From: Chlamydiia bacterium | GTDB taxonomy: Bacteria > Chlamydiota > Chlamydiia > Chlamydiales > Rhabdochlamydiaceae | DNA length: 64,000 nt | Direction of reading: 5' to 3' | NCBI GenBank assembly: GCA_963804085.1 | Contig: CAWDOQ010000015.1 | Location: 32,001-96,000 of the forward strand | In this document: in pieces, positions 5,908 to 62,653 of the stretch | How the letters are laid out: every line of letters starts with the position of its first letter | Position numbering within the stretch: the stretch's first letter is position 1 | Notes under the pieces: generated by a model | Databases searched by the model: none | Seen by the model: the letters and a program-made list of their open reading frames with translations, nothing else | Told to the model about the DNA's origin: nothing | Position numbers and translations under genes: made by a program

Positions 5908-7194
5908 ATGACACAAGCGAAAAAGAAAGCAAAATCCCCCTGGATGGTCTTTTTAGCCATTATTTTGGCTGTGATCGCCGGCACCCTAAGCGGGACTGAG
6001 AGCGGGATCTTTGGCATCACCTTCTACTCCATCTACGACCTCTTTGGAACGCTTTTTATTAAAGCTTTGACCCTCATAGTGGTCCCCCTCGTGTCTGCTT
6101 CTATCATCACGGGCATTGCACGGATTGGGGGCGAAGGCGCATTCGGTAGGCTGGGACTTAAAACCTTCGGGTTTTATATCACTACGACGCTACTTGCGAT
6201 TTTGACCGGTCTAATCTTCGTCAACCTCTTCGATCCAGGCATCTCGCCAAGCGGAAGTTTGGCTGAGAAGGCACGCGAGTTAGCACATCTTAAAGATGAG
6301 CTTGCAGCGCACAAACTCAATGGGATCAGAGACATTCTTTTGCAGATAGTCCCCTCTAACGTCCTGGATGCTTTTGCTCATGGCCAGATGCTCGCACTCA
6401 TCTTTTTTAGCATGCTCTTTGGTTATGGGATCACTAAAATCGAGCCCCACCCCTCCTCAATTTTGCTAGGCTTCTGGCAAGGCATCTTCCAAACGATGAT
6501 TCAGATCACCCACATGGTTATGAAGGTGCTCCCCTTTGGAGTCTTTTGTCTTGTGGCTAAAGTTTTCTCGACGACCGGCTTGGGCTCATTAAAGGCTCTT
6601 GTACTCTTTTTCATCACTGTGATCGCAAGCTTGGGCTTCTTCATGTTCGTCGTGCTGCCTATTTTGCTCAGAGTCGTAGGCAAAGTGAATCCCATAAACC
6701 ACTTCCGTGCAATGGCCCCCGCGCTGCTCACCGCATTTTCTACAAGCTCCTCCTCTGCAAGCATTCCCGTCACACTAGACTGCGTAGAAAAGCGAGCCGG
6801 CGTCTCCAACCGGATCTCAAGCTTAGTCATACCACTAGGCGTCTCGCTCAACCTCTCCGGTTCTGCTCTCTACGAGTGCGTAGCGGCCATTTTTGTGGCG
6901 CAGGTCTATGGCGTTGAGATCTCGTTTTTCACCCAATTTTTGGTCGTATTTTTAGCACTGATCACCTCACTCGGTGTTGCCGGCATTCCTGCAGGAAGCT
7001 TAGTTGCTGTGATCGTCATTTTAAAAGCGATTGGCCTGCCCGAAGAGGGCATCGGCCTCTTCATCGCAGTCGACAGACTGCTCGATATGTGCCGCACCAC
7101 AGTCAACGTCTTTTCTGACAGCTGCTGTGCGATTCTTGTCGCCCGCTCTGAGGGCGAAACTAACATCCTCACTAAAACTGTTTTCGAAGAATAA
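5908..7194 (+). CDS. Dicarboxylate/amino acid:cation symporter (DAACS, GltP-like)
   Basis: AFSTSSSSAS, PLGVSLNLSG and DRLLDMCRTTVNV motifs; multi-TM. Confidence 0.93.
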   Translation: MTQAKKKAKSPWMVFLAIILAVIAGTLSGTESGIFGITFYSIYDLFGTLFIKALTLIVVPLVSASIITGIARIGGEGAFGRLGLKTFGFYITTTLLAILTGLIFVNLFDPGISPSGSLAEKARELAHLKDELAAHKLNGIRDILLQIVPSNVLDAFAHGQMLALIFFSMLFGYGITKIEPHPSSILLGFWQGIFQTMIQITHMVMKVLPFGVFCLVAKVFSTTGLGSLKALVLFFITVIASLGFFMFVVLPILLRVVGKVNPINHFRAMAPALLTAFSTSSSSASIPVTLDCVEKRAGVSNRISSLVIPLGVSLNLSGSALYECVAAIFVAQVYGVEISFFTQFLVVFLALITSLGVAGIPAGSLVAVIVILKAIGLPEEGIGLFIAVDRLLDMCRTTVNVFSDSCCAILVARSEGETNILTKTVFEE

Positions 7195-7382
7195 CGGACG
7201 GCCCCAACGGACAGGGGCTAAACGGACGAAAACGGACAACAAAGAGGCACGGACAAGCAACGGACGTAAACGGACAGCCCCCAAACCCTAGTTGATTTCT
7301 TGGGCCCCGTCCGTTCTCGTCCGTTTCATGTCCATTTCCGTCCGTGCCTCTTTCTGTCCGTTGGGGCCGTCCCTTGTCCGTG
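7194..7382. repeat. Micro-repeat hairpin element, family A (CGGAC x7 / GTCC x7)
   Basis: GGACGGCCCCAACGGACAG pairs perfectly with CTGTCCGTTGGGGCCGTCC; AAAGAGGCACGGAC pairs with GTCCGTGCCTCTTT. Confidence 0.9.
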
Positions 7383-7457
7383 GAAAATAAAATCTTTACT
7401 ATACACCGTTTCTAACATTGTAAACCTCCCCTATTTCTGATAAAATTTTTGCACTTT

Positions 7458-8615
7458 ATGAGTACAGCGACCATACAAACATTTACCCGTTTTTCCGAGC
7501 TACCGCCGGCACTGGCTGTAAAGATCTTATCCTACACGCCGGTTACTGCCCTCGCGTTTGTGAGCAAAACCTTGCATAGCTTGCAAGAGAAAGCGATGGA
7601 GCAGGAGTGGAGAGCCATGAAGAGCAATCCACTACTTGCTGAGCGCATCAGTGCGCTTCCAGCAGGCGATTTTTCACCCATTTGTTTTAGGTTGCTTCTC
7701 GATCAACAGCGCGGCTTGGCCGAGCGTACCCCTGCCGGGTTTAATGCATTTACCCGGCTTCAACGCCTAGAAGTAGGCTCCTACAGCCCAGCACGCTTTG
7801 AAAAAGCCGAACAAATCATAATCGGAGTAGATAGAGAGCAAGAGTACAATTTATGGCAAGTCTGGAGTGCGCATTTTGGATTGAGAACTCTACTTCGAAA
7901 TCAGTTGGGAGATACTCCCCCCGAAAGTGTGCCCGAGATCCGCACTTGGATGAATGCAGCTGAAAACCAAGTTCATTTAGATACGATAGACTGCTTGAAT
8001 GTTTGCTATTCTGGGTTAACAGCTTTTCCTCCCGAAATTGCAAAGTGTCGATTCTTAACAAAAATCATTGCTTCAAGTAACGCGATTCGCGAGTTGCCTG
8101 ATTGGTTTGCGCAATTTTCTTTATTGAAAGAGATAAACATGGAGGAAAGTTTAATAGATAGCGTTCCCGAGGTGCGTTTACCAAATATCGAACATATTCG
8201 TTTGAATCAAAATCCAATAACAAAATGTTCTGAATCAGCATATCGTAATTGTTACACTTGGCGTAAGTGGATATCAGGTTTTACTTTCCGTGAGGTCTAC
8301 CCCTCAAGCGGGATTAGTTTTAACGAATCGAATCTCAGAGAAATACCTTTCTCTTTGTATCTAGAGAGGCTCGATCCAATATTAAGTGAATCTGTCGAAA
8401 GTAAAATATTAGAGTCGGTGTTCGAATATTTTGATCAAATCCATTGGGTTTTGAAAGTTTGCGCACTACCTATTTTGTACGCCGTTACAGTTGTTTTTAC
8501 ATCGTATATGTGGCTTCATTACCTTCTAAATCGTTGCTTTGTAATAGGAATTATCCCAATCGCCACCTGGGTGCGCGAGCAGCTGGGTTACGGCCGCATG
8601 ATCAGACTTAATTAA
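7458..8615 (+). CDS. F-box/LRR protein with C-terminal hydrophobic anchor
   Basis: FSELPPALAVKILSY...AFVSKTL F-box; LRRs (LTAFPPEIAKC, IRELPDWFAQ); C-terminal TM-like segment. Confidence 0.75.
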   Translation: MSTATIQTFTRFSELPPALAVKILSYTPVTALAFVSKTLHSLQEKAMEQEWRAMKSNPLLAERISALPAGDFSPICFRLLLDQQRGLAERTPAGFNAFTRLQRLEVGSYSPARFEKAEQIIIGVDREQEYNLWQVWSAHFGLRTLLRNQLGDTPPESVPEIRTWMNAAENQVHLDTIDCLNVCYSGLTAFPPEIAKCRFLTKIIASSNAIRELPDWFAQFSLLKEINMEESLIDSVPEVRLPNIEHIRLNQNPITKCSESAYRNCYTWRKWISGFTFREVYPSSGISFNESNLREIPFSLYLERLDPILSESVESKILESVFEYFDQIHWVLKVCALPILYAVTVVFTSYMWLHYLLNRCFVIGIIPIATWVREQLGYGRMIRLN

Positions 8616-8628
8616 AACGCGCGCAGAA

Positions 8629-8742
8629 ATGGACTAAAAGTGGACGAAGTGGACAGAGAGTGGACTATGTGGACAGCGCGAAGAGAACCCCGTCCACTAC
8701 AGTCCACTCTCTGTCCACTTCGTCCACTAATCTTTTGTCCAC
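8629..8742. repeat. Micro-repeat hairpin element, family A (TGGAC x5 / GTCCA x5)
   Basis: AGTGGACGAAGTGGACAGAGAGTGGACT pairs perfectly with AGTCCACTCTCTGTCCACTTCGTCCACT; lies between convergent genes. Confidence 0.9.
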
Positions 8743-61312: not shown

Positions 61313-61347
61313 TTCGGGCAAGGGCACGGGCAGGGGCAAGGGCACGT
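61268..61347. repeat. GC-rich palindrome, family C (chimeric arms)
   Basis: Left arm of the CCCGCATCCGCGCCCGCG type, right arm of the GGGCA hexamer type, loop GATCCGGATTAATTC. Confidence 0.9.
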
Positions 61348-61396
61348 TAAAAAGATGTTTATTAAGCAGAAAATGTAGGCGCTACACCTAAAGTCG

Positions 61397-62311
61397 CTAC
61401 AATATCAGCACGGTCCCATTCGACTTCAGTCTACGTAACAATTTAATCGCGCCTACATAGGCAGAACGTGGAAACATTATCGAAGGATCTATCGGAAAAC
61501 TGACATCCCTCCGCTCTCTTGCACGTGTTTTATTAATAGGTAAAGAATGATCAAAGAGGCACTCATTTGTGCGGGCAAAGTGAGCAACAATACTGACAAC
61601 TATCCAAAGGGTTTTTCCCAGCTGCTCCGGATAATCTTTTTCTGCTTGCTCTCGGCTTTTATTCTCGCTTCCGGGATCTGCTGCCTTTTGCATCCATACC
61701 CAGCGAGAAGTAGCTTCGGACTCCTCTCTCAAGTCTTTAGGAAAATCAGCATCGATACGGAGCTCCACTTTGCTTGCCTTAGCAAGCACGACAAAAGTAT
61801 CCAAACAAACAGGCTCACCATCGCAGGCAGCTGGAATCAGAGTGAGCGTATGCGTATTTTTTCTTCTTGCGACCTCTTCATAGATATTTGGAGGAAGCCG
61901 AGGCATAGGGCCGGGATCTCCCCAACAATGCTCCAGCCACTCGCGCGGCCCAAAAGCCATTTTGGGAACGGCGAATATATCTTTAAAACGTCCGCTCTCT
62001 GGCCGAGCGGTTACATCATACTGCTTAGCTTTTCTTTGCCATATCTCATCGGTAAGCTGCCAGGATTTACAAACCGTCTCACACAGCGCAACTTCCTCAG
62101 GCTGCAGAAACTTCAACATGTACTGAAAGCCATGAGGGCAGCTCTGAGAGAGATATTCCCTGCTTTCCACTCTTTCTGTAAAAAGTTGGCTTATCCAGGC
62201 GCAAACTCTTTTCCAGATCGCTGCAATGCAATTGATCAGCTCTGCATAGCAGGGCGGATCTTGCATTAGAATGGGGGCTTTTTCTTCAAAACTAATTTTA
62301 GCTATGGACAT
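61397..62311 (-). CDS. F-box protein with N-terminal Trp/Cys helix; 3' end possibly frameshifted
   Basis: CPHGFQYMLKFLQPEEVALCETVCKSW F-box; AFGPREW..WGDPGPMPRLP; HTLTLIP. Confidence 0.75.
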   Translation of the reverse strand: MSIAKISFEEKAPILMQDPPCYAELINCIAAIWKRVCAWISQLFTERVESREYLSQSCPHGFQYMLKFLQPEEVALCETVCKSWQLTDEIWQRKAKQYDVTARPESGRFKDIFAVPKMAFGPREWLEHCWGDPGPMPRLPPNIYEEVARRKNTHTLTLIPAACDGEPVCLDTFVVLAKASKVELRIDADFPKDLREESEATSRWVWMQKAADPGSENKSREQAEKDYPEQLGKTLWIVVSIVAHFARTNECLFDHSLPINKTRARERRDVSFPIDPSIMFPRSAYVGAIKLLRRLKSNGTVLIL

Positions 62312-62368
62312 AGGCGATAATTATGCCTGAGGAAGTATTAATAATCTGCATATTAGAAAATTTATTTG

Positions 62369-62653
62369 TCGTGCCCATGCCCACATGCTGTTACCCATAA
62401 GTCTAGTGTTCTCTAGAGAATAACAGGATAAGCAGGATCGGCTTCGCCGGCAGGATAAGTAGGATAAATTTCAATTGGGGTTGCAGGGGATTCTCCTGCA
62501 TCATGCATATCCTGCCGGCGAAGCCGATCCTGTTTATCCTGTAATTTAGTACTTGTGAAAAGATATGGGTAACAGCATGCGTACCCTTGCCTGTGCCACT
62601 GCCCGAAATCCGGATTAATTCGGGCACGGGCACGGGCAGGGGCACGGGCACGT
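62369..62653. repeat. Family C palindrome interrupted by a 188-bp insertion
   Basis: CGTGCCCATGCCCACATG | insertion | CATGCGTACCCTTGCC...AATCCGGATTAATTCGGGCACGGG. Confidence 0.85.
62388..62575. mobile_element. MITE-like element: 12-bp TIRs, CATG duplication, containing a family B hairpin (62423-62542)
   Basis: CATG-CTGTTACCCATA ... TATGGGTAACAG-CATG; no ORF. Confidence 0.7.

Follow-up and report, generated by a model that had tools for sequence, protein, structure and literature searches.

A stretch of 64,000 nucleotides from an uncultured, soil-dwelling Chlamydiae-like bacterium, here called the window, carries 18 hairpins whose arms are made of short tandem units, and these are probably several kinds of selfish or dispersed palindromic DNA, in at least three classes that are merely alike in look. 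It seems reasonably likely that the three classes are gene-less copies of a cassette with GC-hexamer arms, an IS4-type MITE with a CAGGAT core, and GGAC hairpins for which no partner was found. The window holds four GGAC, four CAGGAT and nine GC-hexamer hairpins and one nested TGCAAAA hairpin, where chance would give about none; the original prediction had described at least 17 elements of one design in these 64 kb, and they were found about where it had placed them. When each motif was compared with 100 dinucleotide-preserving shuffles of the window, two TGCCYN units followed by TGCC gave 13 matches (0.00 expected), three GGAC cores with gaps of 4–6 nt gave 8 (0.03 expected) and CAGGATNNNCAGGAT gave 11 (0.01 expected). 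Folded as RNA, six window elements reached −62 to −88 kcal/mol (z = −5.3 to −15.9), and none of 200 shuffles was as good. A scan of the whole genome for hairpins with arms of at least 20 nt and loops of at most 150 nt returned 237, of which 42 belong to GC subfamily A, 42 to GC subfamily B, 36 to GGAC and 23 to CAGGAT, with 94 others. The census of core types that had been proposed thus yields 143 micro-repeat hairpins, and 119 of the 930 intergenic regions that are 60 nt or longer contain one. As predicted, no transposase domain was detected in the 26 window ORFs scanned, out of 93 that are 100 aa or longer.

GC-hexamer hairpins number about 80–105 genome-wide. The near-invariant subfamily A is represented in the window at 14924–15024, 11 nt past a stop codon, by a hairpin with a 12-nt period, the loop ATTCATCCGGA, perfect arms of 34 nt and an RNA fold of −85.6 kcal/mol (z = −15.9). 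Further copies are an inverted repeat that fills the spacer ahead of the glucose-6-phosphate dehydrogenase gene (34772–34858) and a hairpin with perfect 36-nt arms, 32 nt past the folD stop codon (55386–55493), inside whose loop an ATCCGA/ATCCAA hexamer run has grown at 55421–55449. The G-rich arm of the variable subfamily B reads (GGGCAN)n, a textbook quadruplex motif. Inverted repeats of this subfamily lie between divergent genes at 24920–24998, flanked according to Pfam by a cyclophilin gene on the minus strand and an amino-acid permease gene on the plus strand, and at 46729–46807, with loop ATCCGGATTAAT and an RNA fold of −69.4 kcal/mol in a register slipped by one hexamer. A hairpin at 41045–41115 has short, perfect 16-nt arms and a CT-rich loop of 39 nt. 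At 61271–61346, overlapping the last codons of a DUF502 gene, a left arm of subfamily A is joined to a right arm of subfamily B; this chimera is not called in the window's inverted-repeat listing and was seen by reading the sequence. Families abut and nest, as had been predicted: the subfamily-B hairpin at 33650–33723, an inverted repeat of tandem TGCCTC/TGCCTG units, directly adjoins a CAGGAT element at 33727–33876, and inverted repeats together with sequence reading divide a composite between divergent genes (62369–62653) into a partial GC arm with an outer stem from 62369, a CAGGAT hairpin within that stem (62419–62546) and, beside it, a subfamily-B hairpin (62580–62653).

The GC-hexamer hairpins are probably gene-less copies of a small four-helix-bundle cassette that have multiplied in this genome; in the full cassette a promoterless-looking PF05635 gene would stand between two arrays of GC-rich hexamers in inverted orientation. 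PF05635 (TIGR02436), the "23S rRNA intervening-sequence protein", is a four-helix-bundle family whose genes lie in 23S rRNA intervening sequences; the protein is not known to have catalytic activity. Six PF05635 matches occur in this genome and four are enclosed by GC-hexamer arms, at three loci, two of the four being allelic strain copies. The arms are of subfamily A in one cassette (G000:C10:17467–18069) and GC-hexamer arms enclose the others (G000:C10:160161–160726; G000:C19:343627–344057, with its strain copy at C7:6784–7215). The association of such arms with four-helix-bundle genes, which the original prediction had put forward for other bacteria, therefore holds here, and these filled copies dispose of the possibility that the elements never carry cargo. 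The arm of the filled subfamily-A cassette, 37 nt long, has matches at 58 loci, and at 45 of these in both orientations. Among PF05635 loci in other genomes of the order, 13 of 18 have inverted tandem-unit arms, GC hexamers in nine of these, and a PF05635 match was found in 9 of 15 genomes with TGCC-hexamer arrays versus 18 of 134 without. In a tree, PF05635 proteins with GC-hexamer arms have branches of 0.17–0.5, those with other or no arms 1.2–4.7. Arms and cargo have probably been retained as one unit across many genera of the order. In metagenome contigs that encode relatives of the cargo protein, tandem-unit arms are present at 2 of the 13 loci having both flanks, and the four-helix-bundle gene therefore often lies outside such a cassette. 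The loop modules of gene-less copies (TCCGGATTAAT and CT-rich runs) are missing from the filled cassettes, so simple deletion from the filled copies now present does not account for the gene-less ones. By-eye reading of 35 subfamily-A flanks revealed neither target duplications nor terminal repeats beyond the arms. Hairpins of the cassette type may spread as DNA, by a process that depends on the hairpin and leaves no target duplication.

The CAGGAT hairpin is best explained as the inner part of a MITE of 205–272 nt that would be moved in trans by an IS4-family DDE transposase. Two full copies of the IS4-family element are present in the genome, each with a perfect 9-bp duplication, and its transposase scores 213 bits against profile NF033591 (cut-off 152). 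Perfect 9-bp duplications were also seen in three CAGGAT MITEs, with 7 of 9 positions in another, and a terminal repeat lies within 120 nt of 9 of the 23 CAGGAT hairpins. Since MITE and IS4-family element have terminal inverted repeats and a 9-bp target duplication in common, the CAGGAT family has a conventional transposase, encoded outside the window. The window elements are probably decayed copies. One, an inverted repeat between divergent genes at 9642–9782, keeps a single terminal repeat (9766–9782); of the five window sites that match the IS terminal 17-mer with at most 4 mismatches, only this one adjoins a CAGGAT hairpin. Another, between convergent genes at 12358–12472, is truncated and has no terminal repeats. 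The element at 33727–33876 combines a partial copy with a full hairpin (33781–33866) and folds at −61.9 kcal/mol (z = −14.8); a search for a terminal repeat there found none. The hairpin at 62419–62546 belongs to the GGCGAAGCC subfamily, whose seven CAGGAT copies lack IS terminal repeats.

GGAC hairpins are 100–190 nt long, and no autonomous partner for them was identified in this genome. The ACGGAC subtype is represented at 7194–7387 by a double hairpin that begins at the last base of the dicarboxylate symporter stop codon, with perfect 19-nt outer arms (7196–7214/7354–7372) and inner arms at 7251–7284/7300–7333. The other three window copies are of the GTGGAC subtype, whose conserved, asymmetric centre of about 32 nt was read at 17 sites. 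The copy at 8629–8742, between convergent genes, has 28-nt arms (8639–8666/8701–8728) that are 100% complementary, and folds at −71.5 kcal/mol (z = −11.3). The copy at 51364–51545, identified by sequence reading and the triple GGAC motif, bears at its centre another hairpin of TGCAAAA/CGCAAAA-type units (51432–51479), a second case of nesting. The copy at 59732–59870, an inverted repeat with tandem units, lies 15 nt past the RNase R stop codon; its left arm contains GAGGTGGAC three times without error (59742–59774), unmirrored on the right, and the copy lacks the outer block that the family consensus has on the left. In two strain alleles a GGAC hairpin stands immediately 3′ of a long-form four-helix-bundle gene, and GGAC hairpins are otherwise solitary; this link to cargo comes from the two alleles of one locus and one of five relatives' loci.

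Other arm families also enclose genes. Arms of CACAGAGG-type units surround a GxxExxY/PDDEXK_3 gene at C4:46904–47419, a cargo that the original prediction had likewise named, and GCAAAG/GCAAAA-type arms enclose an NHLP-leader gene at G000:C19:197894–198689, resembling the nested hairpin at 51432–51479 in unit type. HUH/RAYT cargo, also suggested, was not borne out, the sole HUH/RAYT gene being flanked by a different repeat family.

Comparison among genomes supports the hairpins being dispersed repeats of recent, lineage-specific spread and not fixed terminators. Seven of 15 subfamily-A copies with an 11-nt loop are identical over 77 nt. The triple GTGGAC motif has 81 matches in this genome and none in 24 genomes of the same family. 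In the closest relative compared, a syntenic 100 kb contains three long hairpins, none of micro-repeat type, versus 18 in the 64-kb window. In a strain diverged by about 7%, other sequence occupies two of the element sites and one element persists: run X1 of the strain comparison has 101 other letters at 61271–61346 and 163 at 62293–62649, and the strain retains 59769–59902, part of a GGAC element, with 5 differences. The strain alleles on C19 and C7 differ by a collapsed hairpin and by cassettes with different arms. The elements are thus not positionally fixed in all relatives, a possibility that had been weighed against their mobility.

Gene contexts were taken from rough ORF calls, by which 11 of 42 subfamily-A copies overlap a called ORF, mostly at ORF ends. 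Divergent, convergent and tandem placements number 4, 11 and 16 for subfamily A, 12, 6 and 18 for subfamily B, 9, 12 and 14 for GGAC, and 9, 1 and 11 for CAGGAT. Between genes of the same direction, subfamily A lies a median of 14 nt past the stop codon, GGAC 20 nt and subfamily B 25 nt; the stop is nearer than the next start codon for 15 of 16, 11 of 14 and 12 of 18 copies, respectively. This post-stop placement fits a selected 3′-end function as well. Loops are oriented with and against gene direction in 20 and 22 GC-hexamer copies and in 7 and 6 GTGGAC copies. Long stems that are processed or harmless in RNA would be tolerated right after stop codons. RNase III excision of rRNA intervening sequences might serve as a model for such processing, one that finds no support in this genome: RNase III (PF14622, PF00636) did not turn up in the assembly, which is 91% complete, and is present in 27 of 30 genomes of the same family. 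Its usual neighbours radA, hemC and hemD are likewise missing from the assembly, so that the absence is probably an assembly gap.

The hairpins might instead be functional 3′-end structures, terminators or REP-like mRNA stabilisers under selection, with repetition secondary. The medians given above, the very stable stems (z = −5 to −16) and the rarity of subfamily A between divergent genes all speak for this, and heptamer arrays of Xanthomonas lie similarly near the upstream ORF (PMC4692102). We nevertheless consider it unlikely. Only 8 of 42 subfamily-A and 7 of 42 subfamily-B copies are followed on the 3′ side by TTTT within 12 nt, A runs being commoner (17 and 19); divergent placement accounts for 12 of 36 subfamily-B, 9 of 21 CAGGAT and 9 of 35 GGAC placed copies; the syntenic relative has none of these elements at the same gene junctions; and the same arms also enclose genes. 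Six window elements at four sites (9642, 24920, 46729 and 62369–62653) lie between divergent genes, with flanks partly confirmed by Pfam, and do not simply mark transcript 3′ ends. The hairpins are not plain terminators. The original prediction had joined all four core types as non-autonomous members of one mobile or gene-cassette system with locally homogenised arms. Quite improbable as we find this, it draws on the common design, the abutting and nesting of families, polypurine/polypyrimidine (GAAAG/CTTTC) tracts that every family has in its loops or flanks, and several arm families in which filled copies carry a small cargo gene. Arms also pair with their own partners above shuffled expectation, at 83 of 105 positions versus 71.1 ± 3.3 in subfamily A (reached in 0 of 2000 shuffles) and at 114 of 225 variable hexamer positions versus 97.0 ± 6.3 in subfamily B (7 of 2000), that is, 51% versus 43%. 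Matching of spacers between arms was upheld for GGAC, CAGGAT and the near-invariant GC subfamily; in subfamily B about half of the variable positions pair. Local homogenisation is weakly supported: the pairing excess favours it, but the arms mostly follow subfamily consensus, with a copy's own partner strictly the best match in its family in only 3/42, 1/42, 3/23 and 11/36 copies, and the window copy at 61271–61346 is an A/B chimera. Against a single system, moreover, CAGGAT is an ordinary MITE with IS4-family terminal repeats and 9-bp target duplications, neither of which the GC-hexamer copies show, and cargo varies by arm family (PF05635, PDDEXK_3, NHLP leader peptide).

A role as clustered sites for a protein that binds DNA or RNA, such as a global regulator or nucleoid protein, would suit the GGAC and CAGGAT cores, which recur every 9–10 nt or about one helical turn, and the preference of CAGGAT elements for 5′ regions (9 divergent, 1 convergent, 11 tandem). 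The Geobacter metallireducens genome report (PMC2700814) annotates four classes of paired octamer and heptamer arrays in this way, as putative global-regulator sites. We hold this reading to be very unlikely, as the GC family has periods of 6 and 12 nt, which do not suit one helix face, identical copies stand beside unrelated genes, and terminal repeats with target duplications (CAGGAT) or cargo (GC hexamers) accompany the elements; their absence from 24 same-family genomes and the syntenic relative leaves no conserved regulon. Origin in situ, by microsatellite-like slippage and palindrome formation with no transfer between sites, is hardly credible: 7 of 15 sites carry an identical 77-nt subfamily-A unit, which has an asymmetric loop of 11 nt, and the asymmetric GTGGAC centre of about 32 nt is conserved at 17, and identity at unrelated sites requires copying from a master. 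Slippage has in its favour the unequal unit numbers between arms of one copy (GAGGTGGAC three times, on the left only, at 59742–59774), the hexamer run grown in the loop at 55421–55449 and, for the G-rich arm, quadruplex-forming GGGCAN repeats that might drive the process; the Xanthomonas heptamers were studied as quadruplex motifs (PMC4692102). Slippage accounts for the variation of the hairpins, not for their origin. Within dispersed repeats of several classes, tandem units would allow arm slippage and unit shuffling, which may give the elements their look of a fixed core with a variable spacer.

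Sequence reading combined with repeat detection recovered, in the window, the hairpins of the original prediction: four of the GGAC family (a family with GTGGAC and ACGGAC subtypes), four CAGGAT, nine GC-hexamer and one nested TGCAAAA-type element. Likewise as described, two elements abut at 33650-33876, and nested cases lie at 51364 and 62369. Three unit patterns occur 13, 8 and 11 times in the window against 0.00, 0.03 and 0.01 expected from shuffles, and RNA folds of six window elements range from -62 to -88 kcal/mol (z = -5.3 to -15.9). Rfam at gathering thresholds gave no match in the window, which holds no tRNA genes; its gene content comprises ankyrin and LRR proteins, transporters and housekeeping enzymes. 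When the whole genome was scanned for hairpins (arms of 20 nt or more, a score of 14 or more and a loop of up to 150 nt) and families were sorted by motif rules, 237 hairpins were obtained, making up 1.16% of the genome: 42 GC-A and 42 GC-B (the near-invariant and the variable subfamily of GC hexamers), 36 GGAC, 23 CAGGAT, 23 GGAGTGC, 11 of a 107-nt family and 60 others. Among the 930 intergenic regions that reach 60 nt, 119 contain a micro-repeat hairpin. Counting instead from the inner arm ends as anchors yielded 105 anchor matches and 80 GC-hexamer hairpins with arrays on either side.

GC-A copies follow an almost invariant unit of 77 nt, whose period is 12 nt and whose asymmetric loop measures 11 nt; among the copies with this loop, 7 of 15 are identical and mean pairwise identity is 92.6%. 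The GC-B unit consists of TGCC and two variable bases, and mean identity is 75%. The GTGGAC consensus, read at 17 sites, spans 170-190 nt and is built of outer blocks, inner arrays and a conserved asymmetric centre of ~32 nt. The exact 21-nt loop-plus-arm motif of the GC family had no match in genome_contigs and metagenome_contigs, from which records of this genome itself are possibly excluded. Genome-wide, GC-A copies are flanked outside the arms by CT-rich sequence on the left and GA-rich sequence on the right, and GAAAG/CTTTC tracts recur in the loops of all hairpin families. Other palindromes accompany these elements. The one at window positions 45203-45296 belongs to a family of ~120 nt (23 census copies) that combines GGAGTGC with small GCGAC-N4-GTCGC hairpins and is not of the micro-repeat kind. 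A perfect 21-nt AT-rich hairpin with an 18-nt loop, at 24051-24110, is present in a single copy and is the sole terminator-looking stem of its kind noticed in the window. The 107-nt family consists of perfect hairpins (11 copies) nested within an inverted-repeat element of ~280 nt (for example C16:42413-42690, C17:134331-134609 and C18:12422-12697, where C-numbers denote contigs of this genome), and the genome further contains 185-nt and 195-nt MITE-like families.

The assembly, in which the window occupies C15:32001-96000, comprises 2.13 Mb in 24 contigs (91% complete, 5% contaminated, ~47% G+C). In the contig pairs C1/C3, C10/C9, C19/C7 and C10/C14, the small contigs duplicate stretches of the large ones at 95-99.6% identity, so the bin, with its contamination of 5%, contains two strains; this makes allele comparison possible and slightly inflates copy counts. 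The CTP synthase shares 80% and 73% identity with those of two MAGs labelled Verrucomicrobia bacterium, and 70% with that of one labelled Chlamydiae bacterium; on these grounds the organism is taken to be an uncultured, Chlamydiae-like representative of the PVC group. Sequencing runs with parts of the organism's DNA are soil metagenomes.

Gene contexts were taken from rough ORF-based calls (1855 genes), in which divergent, convergent and tandem regions account for 25, 20 and 55% of intergenic length. The corresponding numbers of elements were 4, 11 and 16 for GC-A (a further 11 overlap a called ORF, mostly at ORF ends), 12, 6 and 18 for GC-B, 9, 1 and 11 for CAGGAT, and 9, 12 and 14 for GGAC. 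Between genes of the same direction, the median distance from stop codon to element was 14 nt for GC-A, 25 nt for GC-B and 20 nt for GGAC, and the element lay nearer the stop than the next start in 15/16, 12/18 and 11/14 cases, respectively. Some host ORFs, among them DUF502 (window 60617-61312) and tyrS (C4:37186-38505), terminate within the left arm of a GC-hexamer element, so that their last codons and stop codon come from the element. The elements were considered as intrinsic, rho-independent terminators, for which a GC-rich stem followed by a T run is diagnostic, and this identity was rejected. A TTTT within 12 nt 3' of the stem, on either strand, was found at 8/42 GC-A, 7/42 GC-B, 8/23 CAGGAT and 11/36 GGAC copies, and T before together with A after the stem is commoner in GC elements than T after it. 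Relative to gene direction, the asymmetric loop points the same way in 20 GC-hexamer elements and the opposite way in 22 (7 and 6 for GTGGAC), and many copies lie between divergent genes. Uncommon T runs, loops pointing either way and divergent contexts together argue that these hairpins are not plain terminators; they may have an effect at mRNA 3' ends.

One of the families has an identifiable source. A long-range inverted-repeat scan revealed an IS4-family insertion sequence (IS) in two full copies, C14:2841-4026 and C19:209439-210624. The 366-aa transposase ORF of this IS scores 213.5 bits with NF033591 (IS4 family transposase), above the cut-off of 152, and also matches PF01609 at E = 8.9e-16. 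The 17-nt IS end, CTCTGTACTGGACAAAA, bounds four complete CAGGAT elements on both sides. Target duplications of 9 bp are perfect at both IS copies and at three of these elements; at the fourth, 7 of 9 positions agree. MITEs are classical bacterial miniature inverted-repeat transposable elements, for which trans-mobilisation by an IS transposase is an established mechanism. The CAGGAT hairpins are the core of an ordinary IS4-family-derived MITE: the elements are 205-272 nt long, lack an ORF, and have terminal repeats and a 9-bp target duplication in common with a full IS in the same genome, whose transposase would mobilise them in trans. They depart from IS4-family MITEs in their interior, a long hairpin of 9-nt CAGGAT units with no relation to the IS, and in the loss of one or both terminal repeats from most copies. 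At least one IS-type end lies within 120 nt in 9 of 23 CAGGAT hairpins. In the window, where three of the four CAGGAT copies are among those with one or both ends lost, the only IS-type terminal repeat left is at 9766-9782; the copy at 62419-62546 belongs to the GGCGAAGCC subfamily of CAGGAT, which has no IS terminal repeats. The single design seen in the window thus includes an ordinary IS4-type MITE, and so design alone defines no system. By eye, no target duplications were seen in 35 flank sets of GC-hexamer and 17 of GGAC elements; one GTGGAC copy has an 8-nt direct repeat in its flanks, and there is no consistent duplication in that family.

GC-hexamer arms, in turn, are found around a gene. 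Profile searches of this genome gave six matches to PF05635 and one to PDDEXK_3 (the GxxExxY family), and filled cassettes, that is, arms enclosing a cargo gene, were found from the flanks of these matches together with inverted repeats 150-4000 nt apart. There are four filled GC-hexamer cassettes at three loci, which bears out the expectation that arms of the window's hairpin types would elsewhere enclose cargo. At C10:17467-18069, GC-A arms enclose a 131-aa gene and, at C10:160161-160726, B-like arms enclose a 126-aa gene; both products match PF05635 and TIGR02436 ('four helix bundle protein'). GC-B arms at C19:343627-344057 surround a gene assigned by its PF05635 match, and a 98%-identical strain copy lies at C7:6784-7215. 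The arms surrounding PF05635 ORFs are 37-54 nt long with 86-95% identity, and the nearest solved structure to the cargo protein is 2GSC (E = 3e-9). Of the 58 loci matched by the 37-nt arm of the filled GC-A cassette, 45 show the match in both orientations. None of the nine GC-hexamer copies in the window carries cargo, and they are therefore assigned to the cassette class by arm identity. Cargo ORFs run on into the right arm, which gives Gly-Thr or Val-Pro tails.

Genes of other kinds also lie between arms. The PDDEXK_3 gene, which has one in-frame TAA, is flanked by arms of CACAGAGG-type units that recur at six other loci as two gene-less hairpins, one copy with a nested hairpin and three single-arm fragments. 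At C19:197894-198689, inverted 98-nt arms enclose an NHLP-leader RiPP precursor gene of 126 aa (TIGR03793, 72 bits). The arms are made of GCAAAG/GCAAAA-type units, which resemble the units of the window's nested hairpin, and 15 loci of the genome match this arm. Rejected as cargo were host genes that stand between two separate hairpins: an MFS transporter, an aldo-keto reductase and an rpiA-tyrS block. An IS66-family element (transposase and Orf2-like gene) at C17:155786-157839 lies between GC-A half arms, as if inserted at the hairpin centre, and a second copy at C17:177832-179847 is 99.95% identical; an IS110-family gene at C17:104884-106113 is flanked by arms of another palindrome.

We extended the comparison to other genomes of the same order, 28 of 150 of which gave a PF05635 match when scored. 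Inverted tandem-unit arms were present at 13 of 18 PF05635 loci in other genomes of the order, nine being GC hexamers of the same kind and four being built of AGTTCGG, ATCTTG, GTAACC and TCAATGA units; of the remaining five loci, one had weak arms, two had plain inverted repeats and two had none. Beyond this genome, which has 157 runs of four TGCC hexamers, such runs occur in 15 of 150 genomes of the order (at most 117 per genome) and in none of the six same-family genomes among those 150. A PF05635 match was found in 9 of 15 genomes with TGCC arrays and in 18 of 134 without; because related genomes are not independent, no significance test accompanies these counts. In the cargo protein tree, read by branch lengths alone as none of its 13 branches was starred, end branches were 0.17-0.5 for proteins with GC-hexamer arms versus 1.2-4.7 for others. 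Arms and gene thus recur together across this order of Chlamydiae-like bacteria, and the unit they form predates this genome. Metagenome relatives of the cargo protein (43-70% identical) have tandem-unit arms at only 2 of 13 loci with two flanks, which counts against the generality of the unit; one further locus with a single flank has a tandem-unit arm.

It had also been proposed that the arms are homogenised locally. Tracking within copies was weak: an element's own partner was the strictly best-matching arm in 3/42 GC-A, 1/42 GC-B, 3/23 CAGGAT and 11/36 GGAC copies. At three variable positions of GC-A, 83 of 105 pairs were Watson-Crick against 71.1 +/- 3.3 with shuffled partners (none of 2000 shuffles reached 83), and at five variable hexamer positions of GC-B, 114 of 225 were paired against 97.0 +/- 6.3 (7 of 2000). 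The copy at 61271-61346 joins a GC-A arm to a GC-B arm, the arms at 59732-59870 have unequal unit numbers, and at 55421-55449 a hexamer run has grown within the loop. We read these patterns as unit slippage and exchange within and between copies, not as arm homogenisation.

In the comparison of orthologous loci, the copies were not positionally fixed. The closest relative compared (G041) is syntenic over almost the whole window, with 34 window ORFs matched in order, and its syntenic 100 kb contains three long hairpins, none of the micro-repeat type, versus 18 in the window; pyrG-ruvX and the following gene are contiguous there. No RNA run was listed for window positions 53000-62900; the DNA runs listed for it, which are soil metagenomes, gave shares of 0.06-0.18, and the stretch was completely covered in one run only (X1), which holds a strain ~7% diverged at a depth of 9. 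Elements of this kind break metagenome assemblies: in the X1 strain, contigs stop to either side of the one at 55386-55493. The X1 strain retains 59769-59902, with five differences and a 12-nt gap; it has 101 other letters in place of 61229-61360 and 163 other letters, not displayed, in place of 62293-62649, a segment that contains the CAGGAT hairpin of the subfamily without terminal repeats. Within the strain-duplicate blocks C1/C3, C10/C9 and C19/C7 (1.5-3.7% diverged) the elements are stable, the sole element difference being an 8-nt indel in a GC-B hairpin.

An informative strain difference lies at the point where the alignment of C19 and C7 ends. These contigs are alleles of the two strains, 98.4% identical over 6.3 kb. 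At the alignment end, a frameshifted long-form four-helix-bundle gene in C19 stands between two ACGGAC hairpins, whereas C7 retains the last 22 nt of such a gene and, after it, a collapsed hairpin of 12 nt. Beyond this point C7 carries an intact long-form gene, 78% identical in DNA, with a GTGGAC element directly 3'. At one of five loci with the long-form gene in other genomes, an ATGGAC hairpin precedes the gene by 115 nt. On this slender basis, the long-form gene and GGAC hairpin being found together at C19/C7 and at one of five loci in relatives, GGAC hairpins look like the 3' module of a second type of cassette. The GTGGAC x3 pattern has 81 matches in this genome, none in 24 same-family genomes and two, incidental, in 16 further genomes, and no autonomous partner of the family was found in this genome.

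Several known systems resemble these elements. ORF-bearing intervening sequences (IVS) of 23S rRNA in Coxiella, Leptospira and others encode S23p/23S_rRNA_IVP and, in Coxiella, their GACAGAT heptamers vary between strains and the stem-loop is excised by RNase III, according to the passages on IVS in PMC4990558. As those passages describe them, IVS share with the present elements the cargo family PF05635/TIGR02436, terminal inverted repeats forming a long stem around the gene, variable-number short tandem repeats in the arm region and a cargo that is often decayed. In contrast to IVS, the elements of this genome lie between protein genes, are mostly cargo-less, number ~100 copies and have arm units of 6 or 12 nt. 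The 23S rRNA gene (C16:20-2796) contains no IVS: its RF02541 alignment comes in three pieces that adjoin with gaps of only 4 and 20 nt and hence leave no insert. Intergenic arrays of tandem units are a second relative, and cyanobacterial STRR are among those with inverted arrays. Others are the GGGAATC arrays of Xanthomonas, with 70-75 paired heptamer cases at an average of 28 nt from the 5' neighbour, and the GGGGAYT arrays of Nostoc (passages in PMC4692102), and the GTTGCTYN/MTYCTGA arrays of Geobacter metallireducens, mostly paired on opposite strands (passages in PMC2700814); they were interpreted there as quadruplex-forming repeats or regulator sites (PMC4692102, PMC2700814). Such heptamer and octamer arrays, as far as these passages go, resemble ours in being intergenic, of short tandem units, often in convergent pairs able to form stem-loops, and nearer the upstream ORF. 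Inverted pairs of intergenic 6-9-nt tandem units near the upstream ORF are what we find in this genome, the class being descriptive and without a defined mechanism. Our units differ in length (6, 9-10 and 12 nt) and sequence, and the published passages on Xanthomonas, Nostoc and Geobacter draw no link to a cargo gene or insertion sequence.

REP/REPIN-RAYT systems likewise place many short intergenic palindromes after genes, and this genome has one IS200/RAYT-like gene flanked by inverted repeats, a single PF01797 gene (95 bits) at C17:57812-58264. Its flanking repeats, of ~100 nt, form a family with four locations in the genome, two being repeat clusters; since this family is separate from the micro-repeat hairpins, RAYT was rejected as mobiliser. 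The arms here, moreover, are 30-45 nt of tandem units, versus REPs of 20-40 nt. Eukaryotic foldback transposons have long inverted arms of short tandem subrepeats with little or nothing between them; the long subrepeat arms are alike, domain of life and scale differ, and we take this as a resemblance only.

To our knowledge, intergenic tandem-unit hairpins (STRR, Xanthomonas, Geobacter) have been known for decades without a source or mechanism, and we know of no role for the small proteins encoded in rRNA intervening sequences. This genome joins both: identical GC-hexamer arms are seen ~100 times with nothing between them and, at three loci, four times around a four-helix-bundle gene. The presence of empty and filled copies together makes it testable whether the protein binds or moves the arms and whether the stem is cleaved in RNA. 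Searches of the literature outside subscription journals gave no published link of these hairpins to PF05635 cassettes, and no paper on Chlamydiae repeats. Already in print, in the passages available, are the array architecture (PMC4692102, PMC2700814) and the cargo family with its stem in rRNA IVS (PMC4990558). New are the Chlamydiae-like host, units of 6, 9-10 and 12 nt versus 7, the order-wide conservation of GC-hexamer arms with one protein subfamily, and the finding that a look-alike family among the window's hairpins is nothing more than an IS4-type MITE.

We hypothesize that the cassettes would spread at the DNA level, in a hairpin-dependent manner that leaves no duplication, and that the gene-less form would multiply like a non-autonomous element. 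A retro-type route is without support, as reverse transcriptase (PF00078) had no match in the 91%-complete assembly. A far broader reading, which we regard as unlikely, is that hairpin-armed four-helix-bundle cassettes are a widespread transposase-less mobile system, in which an Avd-like four-helix-bundle protein would be a trans-acting factor recognising the units that make up its own arms, and the ~100 gene-less hairpins would be MITE-like parasites of the system. Each protein subfamily would then be associated with its own unit sequence, as is suggested by the short-branch GC-hexamer group when set against the other-armed proteins. Were this reading true, the intervening sequences of rRNA, STRR-like heptamer arrays and many 'REP-like' hairpins of different phyla would share an origin. 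On our main reading, the cassettes would be tolerated within transcripts, their long stems being either cut out or harmless, by analogy with the RNase III excision of the Coxiella IVS described in the passages of PMC4990558. For the RNase III step, this genome itself gives no support: RNase III domains had no match in the 91%-complete assembly. They are present in 27 of 30 same-family genomes, and in G041 RNase III, radA, hemC and hemD form one block (G041:C12:35-39 kb). Since radA, hemC and hemD likewise had no match here, the absence of RNase III is probably an assembly gap, and we dropped it as a meaningful loss. As a separate observation, a GC-hexamer-armed four-helix-bundle cassette in one same-family genome (G013:C6:276986-278019) lies 336 nt from the RNase III gene.
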